In this document: one piece after another, positions 57,692 through 60,500 of the stretch
How positions within the stretch are numbered: the first letter of the stretch is position 1
Layout of the letters: every line of letters starts with the position of its first letter
Origin: Centroscyllium fabricii
Lineage: Eukaryota
Assembly: GCA_051313645.2 (NCBI GenBank)
Contig: JBNRSN020000005.1
Span: 10,850,001 to 10,914,000 of the forward strand
Direction of reading: 5' to 3'
Length of the DNA: 64,000 nt
Position numbers and translations under genes: made by a program
Notes under the pieces: model-generated
The model's input: only the letters and a program-made list of their open reading frames with translations
The model's database searches: none
Told to the model about the DNA's origin: nothing

Positions 57692-57703
57692 GTATTGTTA
57701 TTC

Positions 57704-57996
57704 TATATCCATCTCCATCTCTCCCATCTCCATCTCTCCCTTCTCCAATCTCACTCCATCTCCATCTCTCCCATCTCCATCTCTATCTCTCTCCATCACT
57801 CTCTATCTCTCTCCGTCTCCATCTCCATCTCTCTCATCTTCCTCCATCTCCATCTCTCCCATCTTCCTCCATCTCCATCTCTCCTATCTCTCCAATCTCG
57901 CTCCATCTCCATCTCTCTCCATCTCTCCAATCTCGCTCCATCTCCATCTCTCCAATCTCACTCCATCTTCATCTCTCTCCACCTCCATCTCCATCC
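57704..57996. repeat. (atctcc)n / CT-rich low-complexity tract
   Basis: Direct reading; starts about 12 nt after the donor at 57692. Confidence 0.9.
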
Positions 57997-59020
57997 ATAA
58001 CTTATATTTAAAGAGCTTCTGTCGTGCAGTGAAATGTCCCAGGGTGCTTTATAAAGTGAGGGGTGTACACTGAGCAGGAAGGAAGACGGGGAGGTGATCA
58101 AAGATAGGTCGAGGAATTAGGCTTGGAGGAGCCCCTTGAAGGTGGGGGGGAAGAGGTTTAGGAAGAGAATTCTGGATGTGGTGGAGTGGCAGGAAGGACG
58201 GATGAGCAAAATACCAGAGCTGGGGGGATGCACGTTGGGAAGTAGAGGAACTGTAGATGTAAAGTATTTTATCCATTGAATCCAATGAGTAGATTTGTAG
58301 AATCTTGCAGCGCAGCAGGGGGCCATTCAGCCCGTCATGCCTGTGTGGGCTGTTTGAAAGAGTTGTCCAGTTTAGTCCCACATCCCAGCCTTTTCCCCAT
58401 AACCCTGTAAATGAGTCCTCTTCAAGTACACGTCCAATTGCCTTTTGAAAGTTCCTATGGAATCAGATTCCACCACCCTTTCAGGTAGTGCGTTCCAGAT
58501 CAGAACAACTCTGTGTGTGAAATAATTTCCCCTCATTTCCCCGCTAATTCTTTTGTCAATTATTTTAAATCTATGACCTCTGGTTGCTGACCTACTTGCC
58601 GAGGAAACAGTTTCTCCCTACTTGCTCCATCAAAATCCCTCATAATTTTGAATATAGAAACATAGAAGATAGGAACAGGAGTAGGCCATTCGGCCCCTCG
58701 AGCCTGCTCTGCCATTCAATGAGATCATGGCTGATCATCCAAACCCAGCACCCTGTCCCTGTCTTCTCCCCATATCCCTTGATACCTTTAGCTCTAAGAA
58801 TATCTCCATTCGGTCTCCCCTTAACCTTCTCTGCTGTAAGGAGAACAATCCCAGTTTCTCCAATCTCTCCATAGAGGTAGAGTTGTCCCCAGTATACGAC
58901 TTGTTCAAATTGGCAATGCTATTCTACGCGGCATTCGAGCTCAAGAACCCTGACATGCTCACTCTGACCCAGGCTCAGTACTCGCTGCTATAACCAATAT
59001 TTTCTTCTTTTTACACATAG

Positions 59021-59122
59021 GCTTCTTCATATTTGTATTCCATTGTGCTCTAAAAGAAAATGTACAGAAGCAATGGAGGCGATACCTTTGCTGCGGCAGA
59101 TTCAGACTCCCGGAAAATTCAG
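59021..59122 (+). CDS. ADGRG6: ADGRG6 exon ([34 protein letters not shown])
   Basis: acatag acceptor, gtagga donor. End of TM7 and helix 8. Confidence 0.95.
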
Positions 59123-59144
59123 GTAGGATCCAGATCAGCTTTCG

Positions 59145-59379
59145 TTCAAATTCAAATTCAAATATTATTTCTCACATGTACTAAAATACAACGCGTGCAA
59201 TCTAGACAATGAAATGCTTTCTTTACGAGCCGAACGCACCGCGCAACAAAGAACACTAAGCTGCCCGGCACGCCCGGAGCCCGTAAGATGGCAGCCACCT
59301 CACCGGCGCCATCATCATAGGTCCCGTTCTCGCACCACTCCGGCTTCTCCTGCTGTCAAAGTTCAACGTTCTTTGACCA
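59145..59379 (-). mobile_element. Rex/Babar-like LINE/SINE 3' tail fused to the EIF3I retrocopy
   Basis: Minus strand reads gcatttcattg...gtacatgtgagaaataata(tttgaa)3. Family name is from recall. Confidence 0.55.
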
Positions 59380-60076
59380 ACCGCAGCCCATCTGCCCGTC
59401 ATTCGTGAACACGATGATGACACCGCCGAAGTCAAAGCCGCCAGTTCTAACCGCAGAGCCCGTTCCAAACAGAGCGAGCCGCTTCCTGCTCCACAGTCCC
59501 AAAGTCCACACGAGTCATCTGCAGAACCGGCCCAGTCAACGTCCACACACCACACCGCTCCGGCGCGTCCACTGCAAGCGCCGAGCCTCTCACCGTTCAG
59601 GGAACACCAGACACCAACAACGGTATCTCCTGCACAGGAGAACACCAAATTGCGCCCCCGGCTGCATTCATAGAAACATAGAAACTAGGAGCAGGAGTAG
59701 GCCATTCGGCCCTTCGAGCCTGCTCCGCCATTCAATGAGATCATGGCTGATCCTCCAAACCCAGTACCCCGTCCCTGCCCTCTCCCCATATCCCTCGATC
59801 CCTATCGAGCCTGCACCGACACATATCTCACCCTCTCCCCGTAACCCCACATATTCAATCCCCCTAACACTAAGTGTCAATTTATCCTGGCCAATCAACC
59901 TAACCCGCACATCTTTGTGATTGATCTTTCATGACCTTGCAACAAGATGGGTTTCATGGCGGCCGCTGGTGGTGGTTGCCCGGCTGGCGGCCTCTCCCTC
60001 ACGGCCCGGTGTCTCGGCGCTTCACTCGCTCCGCCGCAGCATGGAGAGTAGGAGAAGCCGGAAGTACGTCATCGGC
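59380..60076 (-). pseudogene. EIF3I: Processed, 3'-truncated EIF3I retrocopy with 5'UTR, split by a SINE, A-to-G hypermutated
   Basis: gccgccATG at 59957 gives MKPILLQGHERSIT. After the SINE it reads ECSRGRNLVFSCAGDTVVGVWCSLNGERLGACSGRAGAVWCVDVDW-AGSADDSCGLWDCGAG, then after a frameshift RLALFGTGSAVRTGGFDFGGVIIVFTNDGQMG. Colinear with recalled EIF3I, no introns. Confidence 0.93.
59670..59917 (-). mobile_element. 5'-truncated V-SINE inside the EIF3I retrocopy
   Basis: Family match; about two codons (QI) are missing at the site. Confidence 0.9.
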
Positions 60077-60500
60077 CTCTCAAATTATTCTGGTCATTTC
60101 AGGAAGGACCCATGCAATTTGACCATCTCTTGTACTCCACTTAACTTAATACATGGTGTGGGAGCTCCTCCAGCGGTTCATTGGATGGACATACTGGCCA
60201 GGAACGATTCAGCTTCAAGTCCCAATGTGTCAGCCATGGCTCAGTGGGTCGCACCTTTGCTGCTGAGTCAGAAGGTGTGGGTTCACAGTCCCACTCCAGG
60301 GACTTGAGCACAAAAAATCTAGGCAGCACTGAGGAAGTCTTTTGGATGAGACGTTAAACTGAGGCCCCATCTGTCCTCTCGGGTGGATGTAAAAGATCCC
60401 ATGGTAGTATTTCAAAGAAGAGCAGGGGAGATATCCCCAGTGTTGTGGCCAATATTTATCCCTTAAGCAACATAATAAAAACAGATTAGCTGGTCATTGT

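Follow-up and report, generated by a model that had tools for sequence, protein, structure and literature searches.

How did the 5′ part of a protein-coding mRNA come to lie in an intron, joined to a tail other than poly(A)? The question is raised by the minus strand of the window (the whole 64,000-nucleotide stretch of Centroscyllium fabricii DNA analyzed here), where an earlier sequence-only reading had described a 5′ fragment of EIF3I fused near 59378 to 235 nt ending in three TTTGAA units. This fusion was confirmed. The insertion extends from about 60073 to 59145 on the minus strand, is closed by the three TTTGAA units at 59162-59145, and is a single member of a multicopy family. Its features are compiled in Table 1.

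Table 1. Parts of the retroposon copy in the window and of its host site (positions are those of the window).
Feature	Positions	Strand	Basis or comment
Family 5′ cap: TGACGTAC-like start and panhandle 5′ arm (60062-60044)	60044..60073	-	Parent EIF3I 5′ UTR mostly without such a form
EIF3I exon 1: 5′ UTR and ATG (59957-59955)	59955..60048	-	Parent-gene comparison
EIF3I exon 2, first part	59911..59954	-	Parent-gene comparison
Later insertion: 240-nt high-copy SINE-like repeat, 5′-truncated, with short tandem-repeat tail	59671..59910	-	
Remainder of EIF3I exon 2, exons 3-4, and exon 5 to codon 120, intronless	59379..59670	-	
3′ module, 235 nt, common to family B and relatives	59145..59378	-	Unedited; A>G 1/48
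Panhandle 3′ arm, within the module	59339..59357	-	
LINE-like terminus with (TTTGAA)3	59145..59192	-	82-84% match between the corresponding family B end and the 3′ terminus of an EN-RT-PF09004 LINE
Exon of the host adhesion-GPCR gene, followed by the GT donor at 59123	59021..59122	+	7tm_2 match is to the upstream exon; 59021..59122 alone has no Pfam match

Host site of the window copy

The element lies antisense to an adhesion-GPCR gene, and its tail ends 22 nt into the intron that follows the GT donor at 59123. The position first reported, 22 nt below a donor assigned to ADGRG6 (here an adhesion-GPCR gene by its 7tm_2 match), was therefore correct, but the accompanying view of a lone insertion was not, since the same EIF3I junction occurs at at least 321 sites. 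The EIF3I part of the window copy has lost 18 nt at about 59530. The later repeat that splits exon 2 (Table 1) is one that we take to resemble shark HE1/HER1-type repeats. On the host side, a pyrimidine-rich tandem repeat (57700-58000) directly follows the preceding exon.

The word tcaaatt, present at both outer ends, had been read as a target site duplication (TSD). The copy at 59146 belongs to the TTTGAA tail, and that at 60080 lies 7 to 9 nt beyond the family 5′ end (about 60071-60073); tcaaatt is no reliable TSD. Among 31 full-length copies, a TSD score of at least 7 was reached by 3, compared with 4.3% of shuffled pairs, which is chance level, and a long duplication was present in 2, one of them inside a tandem repeat. 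A search for an empty orthologous site yielded four sequence runs that match the 3′ flank of the window copy with 0 to 1 differences and enter the tail, and no joint across the element was found.

EIF3I heads a multicopy retroposon family

When the 235 nt were used as a query, 2795 first-look candidates were obtained, and 27 of the 29 other top loci fetched with it had the same EIF3I head. A junction motif tolerant of A/G differences matched the genome 321 times, and the control gave 0 matches. Of 36 copies that similarity searching had recovered across the junction, 20 match this motif, so that the total would be about 580, probably more. This family, which we call family A, is a ~700-nt non-autonomous retroposon made of EIF3I exons 1-5 and the 3′ 235-nt module, with at least 321 copies and roughly 600 in all; it is dispersed, non-coding, 5′-truncated, and multicopy. 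All EIF3I chimeras examined have a single common junction, the 34 full-length copies examined have a common 5′ end, and the remaining copies are 5′-truncated. Family A has no poly(A): its 3′ end is the module with (TTTGAA)n. At sites that are neither A nor CpG, the copies diverge by a median of 3.3%. The copies were not each made directly from the parent mRNA; the fixed 5′ end, the 5′ truncations, and shared deletions and edit patterns (see below) indicate that daughter copies became sources.

We also observed that 5′-truncation and internal-deletion ends recur at family positions 462-480 (L003, L004, L008, L042, L045, L049, L054, and L262), in the junction zone beside the panhandle described below, suggesting that this zone may be a hot spot at which reverse transcriptase stops or jumps.

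A single junction in exon 5 of spliced EIF3I

Translated, a little-changed copy of the EIF3I fragment found in the window is 92-94% identical to elasmobranch EIF3I, which places the host in or near the cartilaginous fishes. The parent gene lies on contig C834 with the usual exons. The element comprises exons 1-5, with introns 1-4 exactly removed and exon joints that match the parent. Its junction falls within exon 5 at codon 120, with 41 nt left to the donor of that exon, and shows a 1-nt overlap; the native EIF3I continuation past the junction occurs once in the genome, in the parent gene. Splicing into the element was rejected because the junction is mid-exon, away from the host splice donor. 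We likewise rejected (TTTGAA)3 as EIF3I C-terminal coding sequence, as the last exon of the gene differs and families without EIF3I end in the same kind of tail.

Several features of the parent locus are recorded here in their own right. Intron 3 (G000:C834:26076460-26080930), which is removed in the element, begins with GTATCCTT and carries close to its end a word resembling TCCTTAAT, presumably the minor-spliceosome pattern. An EIF3I intron also holds, in sense orientation, an older member of the superfamily that supplied the module (G000:C834:26093700-26094450; ~70% like the module). Just upstream of exon 1, a possible divergent start codon and donor on the minus strand (G000:C834, about 26067480) suggest that a neighbor gene may stand head-to-head with EIF3I. 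Elsewhere, a 110-nt copy of a later EIF3I coding stretch lies isolated amid repeats (L064, G000:C800:57497099-57497245).

Comparison with other organisms bears on the age of the capture. Contigs that span the chimeric junction are present in organisms D and B. At codons 32-33 the element encodes Thr-Val, as do two named elasmobranch proteins and organisms E and F; Pro-Ala is found in the parent gene and in organism D, whose 5′ UTR end differs from that of the parent. The junction-crossing contigs of organism D, together with the codon 32-33 pattern, make it likely that the capture is older than the split from D. No contig of organisms E and F covers the module, which for contig data does not prove its absence.

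The single intronless junction in exon 5 suggests that the chimera was born once, by a template switch of reverse transcriptase from the element RNA to EIF3I mRNA. A different birth is possible, though we judge it clearly less probable: a 5′-truncated module could have inserted in exon 5 of an EIF3I allele since lost, whose spliced read-through was then retroposed (5′ transduction). Either event, insertion or switch, could have left a junction inside an exon with a 1-nt overlap, and copies of the module standing alone (L003, L004, L049, and L054) begin at the module boundary, which makes a 235-nt insertion a natural product. However, exon 5 of the present parent gene is intact, with no scar found, and the module relative that the gene does hold in an intron is only about 70% alike.

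A panhandle joins the 5′ cap and the module

The inverted repeat that had been noticed around the captured mRNA is real: in the window copy, the arms at 59339-59357 and 60044-60062 pair at 17 of 19 positions, and the inferred ancestor shows perfect pairing between positions 3-21 and 486-504 (19 bp; the best of 2000 shuffles reached 13). As the module arm is also present in family B (see below), it is the older of the two. The 5′ region of the parent EIF3I gene has short pieces of the 5′ arm only, and the native mRNA of organism F starts with a plain pyrimidine tract that shares the last 7 nt of the arm. In two copies on contig C336, the inverted match stretches, degraded, to about 45 nt; the scores were 26 and 23, and the highest background value among 228 compared was 22, a modest excess. 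L262, in which the module is read backwards, was excluded as a false full-length match.

We consider it on balance probable that the panhandle arose by fold-back: a short CTCTC/GAGAG match would have let the end of the first-strand cDNA anneal to the module and copy it into an inverted 5′ cap. In 16 of 37 full-length copies, the arm follows a TGACGTAC-like word, which we assume resembles CRE and ETS sites; the cap with these words, together with the EIF3I UTR, would form a putative internal Pol II promoter.

The sequence-only reading had suggested instead that base pairing possibly guided the capture; the 5′ end of EIF3I mRNA would then have been paired beforehand with the element RNA, in a tether that directed the fusion. 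This now appears unlikely. The perfect 19-bp ancestral panhandle would suit such a tether, as would the 7 arm nucleotides shared by the relative's mRNA, whose pyrimidine tract could form G-U pairs with a purine-rich stretch of the module; moreover, about 21 nt separate the junction from the helix, and several internal deletions end in this zone. However, neither the parent gene nor the relative's mRNA has the arm as such, the parent lacking most of it in that form and the relative showing the plain tract, the C336 match continues past anything EIF3I-like, and only one mRNA partner has been found. We favor fold-back over guided capture.

The 3′ module and its candidate partner LINE

With the last 88 nt as a query, 29 other loci were recovered: EIF3I was present in 13, another GC-rich head met the module at the identical point in 10 (family B), and the remaining 6 were truncated. 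Family B is ~740 nt long and non-coding, and shares the module with family A from the same point. The core motif of the superfamily had 7,687 matches and the tail motif 2,041. The tail thus occurs thousands of times apart from EIF3I, an outcome that formally counts against the sequence-only reading, and does so within other families. The superfamily (L079, L270, L273, L248, L240, and relatives) consists of GC-rich, non-coding, non-autonomous elements of 600-850 nt with an SVA-like layout; its features are internal tandem repeats, a conserved 200-nt 3′ module, LINE-like tails, and at least 7,687 copies. We found no name for L079 and its relatives, and neither tRNA nor Rfam heads were matched in 5 loci (1 of family A and 4 of sister families).

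The module had been taken as a LINE tail. Its last ~50 nt are LINE-like, but the 235 nt as a whole are not LINE sequence, the direct donor being a non-autonomous element. A partner LINE was sought by the tail. The genome holds an abundant single-ORF LINE (L138-L157 and L188-L211; 78,250 candidates) with EN, RVT_1, and PF09004 domains, which by this architecture we take to be of Rex1/Babar type; its protein relatives in teleosts have about 50-68% identity, high for the distance involved. The end of family B matches the end of this LINE over 46-50 nt at 82-84%, a short match, and the family A query copy gave no tail match to it at E<0.01. The 5′ end of the LINE is unrelated to that of family A or B, and family B as an internal deletion of this LINE was rejected on that ground. 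This LINE is a candidate partner; the short tail match, its restriction to family B, and the unrelated 5′ end mean that the true partner may be another LINE family. The older non-coding donor element was likely mobilized by a Rex1/Babar-type LINE.

We asked how many heads of such elements are captured mRNAs. Among 58 distinct coordinate-ordered loci bearing the tail or core, 9 carried EIF3I, and the others had related non-coding heads or were truncated. No second captured mRNA was found among these 58 and 18 earlier non-EIF3I loci, and the 88 upstream open frames of non-EIF3I loci gave two Pfam matches, both to LINE domains. The sequence-only reading had proposed to count unrelated mRNA fragments in the 5′ flanks; the flanks of these loci yielded none besides EIF3I. 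One locus (L268, G000:C1:46026586-46029606) is a tertiary mosaic in which a B-like head is followed by a short EIF3I-derived piece and then by the module; families have here swapped heads. Such exchange would fit a general route by which the tail repeatedly takes up unrelated mRNAs as one-offs, but with 9 of 58 loci being EIF3I and the open frames giving LINE domains only, we regard this route as very improbable. What survives of the earlier proposal of non-L1 capture by tail fusion is that a host mRNA was mobilized by a non-poly(A), non-L1 tail; a general route does not, as no second mRNA partner was found among the loci examined.

Strand-specific A-to-G changes in the EIF3I part

From 90 loci, 3 duplicates and 18 loci lacking the EIF3I part were removed, leaving 69 aligned copies, and later 68 after removal of a near-duplicate. 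Changes were polarized on the parent gene and the unedited copies, and three 5′ UTR sites that represent CpG changes of the parent gene were removed from the edit set. In the EIF3I part of the 68 copies, 1954 of 5589 A sites had changed to G (35.0%), compared with 90 of 4392 T>C (2.0%). The A>G skew that the sequence-only reading proposed to look for is therefore strong. In the module (506-680), the corresponding values were 41/2255 (1.8%) and 67/3181 (2.1%), and the skew fades 15-35 nt past the junction. The window copy behaves likewise, with A>G at 40/114 and T>C at 2/89 across its whole EIF3I part, and the middle region of family B shows no skew (A>G 3.0%, T>C 3.1%; 21 copies). The same contrast was seen in 29 copies chosen by the junction motif alone, so that it is no selection artifact of the similarity search. 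At least 20% of A sites were changed in 47 of 58 copies and less than 12% in 10 of 58. Through these changes, the GC content of the EIF3I-derived head rose from 51% to 61-64%.

The A>G frequency depended on the 5′ neighbor (T 0.60, A 0.42, C 0.31, G 0.19). By 3′ neighbor it was 0.34 for G, 0.43 for A, 0.33 for T, and 0.31 for C, with no enrichment of 3′ G. Portions of PMC4365171 describe ADAR hyper-editing as having G depleted upstream and enriched downstream of the site. The order T>A>C>G fits the upstream depletion, and the A-to-G changes are likely ADAR edits fixed by reverse transcription. It is highly improbable that they instead reflect reverse-transcriptase error, GC-biased conversion, or mis-polarized CpG decay, as the missing dsRNA partner (see below), the lack of 3′ G preference, and the three removed CpG sites might hint, given that the skew is strand specific (35% versus 2%), ends on the same molecule no farther than about 15-35 nt from the junction, is all or little per lineage, is polarized on an intact parent gene, and is depleted after G.

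Search for a double-stranded partner

ADAR requires long double-stranded RNA. We looked for an inverted partner in three sets: 94 loci containing the EIF3I part (in most cases with flanks of about 1.5 kb), 20 low-edit loci extended by 10 kb on each side, and 40 kb at C336. None was found. EIF3I self-folding was rejected as the ADAR substrate (z 0.0), and an unedited copy as a whole folds no better than shuffles (z -0.76). A 1-nt indel at the exon 4/5 joint is present in both forms among edited as well as unedited copies, which speaks against a single hairpin source locus and argues for an antisense RNA that would act in trans. RNA from an unedited source would then have paired with this antisense RNA over the EIF3I part and been hyper-edited once per founder. 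If an antisense partner acted in trans, it needs to be explained why the module and family B escaped editing; mobilization, for instance, may need an unedited module.

We note that the stretch carrying the edits corresponds roughly to the loop that the panhandle encloses. At C336 (G000:C336, about 803700-807600; L222 and L215), two unedited copies with the longest 5′ ends lie 2.4 kb apart; the first has lost the module, and its family likeness stops about where editing ends in other copies.

Edit patterns are inherited

After fitting of site and copy effects, the residual correlation exceeded 0.5 in 59 of 871 pairs of copies, compared with 0.5 pairs expected from simulations of independent editing. 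Clustering of the 45 long edited copies gave 18 groups, of which 8 had 2-11 members and 10 consisted of a single copy. The members of one cluster have an internal deletion in common as well, and the window copy clusters with L005 and L162. The edit patterns of these 45 copies, in about 18 lineages, are inherited, so the edited copies themselves were re-mobilized. Private changes within six clusters were A>G 43/1400 and T>C 40/1903; with private A>G near background, continued editing in each round was rejected. Overlap between clusters was near independence (mean z -0.18, 153 pairs), and 4 of the 153 lineage pairs overlapped above expectation (z>2.7), so some lineages may be nested. The simplest reading of these patterns is that each founder would have undergone one editing burst and then served as a source, edited founders amplifying with little or no further editing.

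Discussion

Taken together, these data make it quite probable that the window copy belongs to a non-autonomous retroposon family that unites the spliced 5′ third of EIF3I mRNA with the 3′ 235 nt of an older element, and most of whose copies descend from A-to-G founders, likely made by ADAR editing.

The nearest parallels concern single parts of this history. SVA_F1 (MAST2 exon 1) and chimpanzee pt_SVA_D6 (STK40 exon 1), with 84 and 94 copies in the available text of PMC6139936, likewise are composite non-autonomous elements in which the GC-rich 5′ end of a host mRNA took the place of the head and which amplified as a subfamily, the host piece being thought to serve as an internal promoter. According to the same portions, they acquired one exon by splicing and are moved by L1 with poly(A), whereas the EIF3I family has five spliced exons and a mid-exon joint. 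Unlike SVA_F1 as described there, it also has a (TTTGAA)n LINE-like tail, several times more copies, and inherited A>G lineages. With regard to its birth, the EIF3I chimera likely resembles the template switches of U6-L2 and U6-SINE chimeras: U6-L2, U6-Mon-1, and U6-AnolisSINE2, as far as PMC4476161 was accessible, also place a cellular RNA 5′ of the tail of a stringent LINE or SINE, their TSDs being short or missing, and parts of PMC2104539 report template-switch chimeras in Magnaporthe. The U6 chimeras, in those sections of PMC4476161, contain a small RNA and formed individually; the EIF3I family is an mRNA chimera, formed once and re-amplified.

The family is also non-autonomous, ends in a LINE-like tail, and shows 5′ truncation, like the SINEs with LINE-derived tails and stringent recognition treated in sections of PMC3747384. 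Unlike tail-sharing SINEs, it has a Pol II mRNA as its head and no tRNA, 7SL, or 5S head. The tail and TSD of Rex1 are left unsettled in the portion of the Rex review at hand (PMC6274825). Compared with an L1-type processed pseudogene, the EIF3I family shares the precise removal of introns and differs in having no poly(A) and no reliable TSD. The dense, strand-specific A>G changes with G depleted upstream are like those of ADAR hyper-edited RNA in the excerpts of PMC4365171; unlike that RNA, the EIF3I family has its edits in germline DNA, passed through further retroposition, and 3′ G enrichment is absent. A literature search, with Repbase, Dfam, and most subscription journals outside its scope, found nothing on this family or on inherited ADAR-edited retroposon lineages, which does not establish absence from print. 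Avian retroviral copies are reportedly A-to-G hypermutated.

Here a fragment of a protein-coding mRNA became a self-propagating mobile family without L1. The family also documents, on a large scale and in nature, probable germline A-to-I editing that entered the genome and was passed on as copies were retroposed again; every change in this record can be polarized since the parent gene and unedited copies survive. Two questions thereby become open to direct test: does editing hinder or favor retrotransposition, and what portion of the RNA has to stay unedited for recognition by a stringent LINE? Tentatively, ADAR may even have made the successful lineages: hyper-editing of the head would have removed its likeness to EIF3I mRNA while raising its GC and CpG content, and edited founders could thereby have escaped further editing or silencing and out-replicated the unedited form. 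If this is true, RNA editing would be a mutagen that drives transposon evolution, with about 18 or more independent editing events kept as DNA lineages. Antisense intronic copies, such as the one in the window, could in addition pair with the real EIF3I mRNA.
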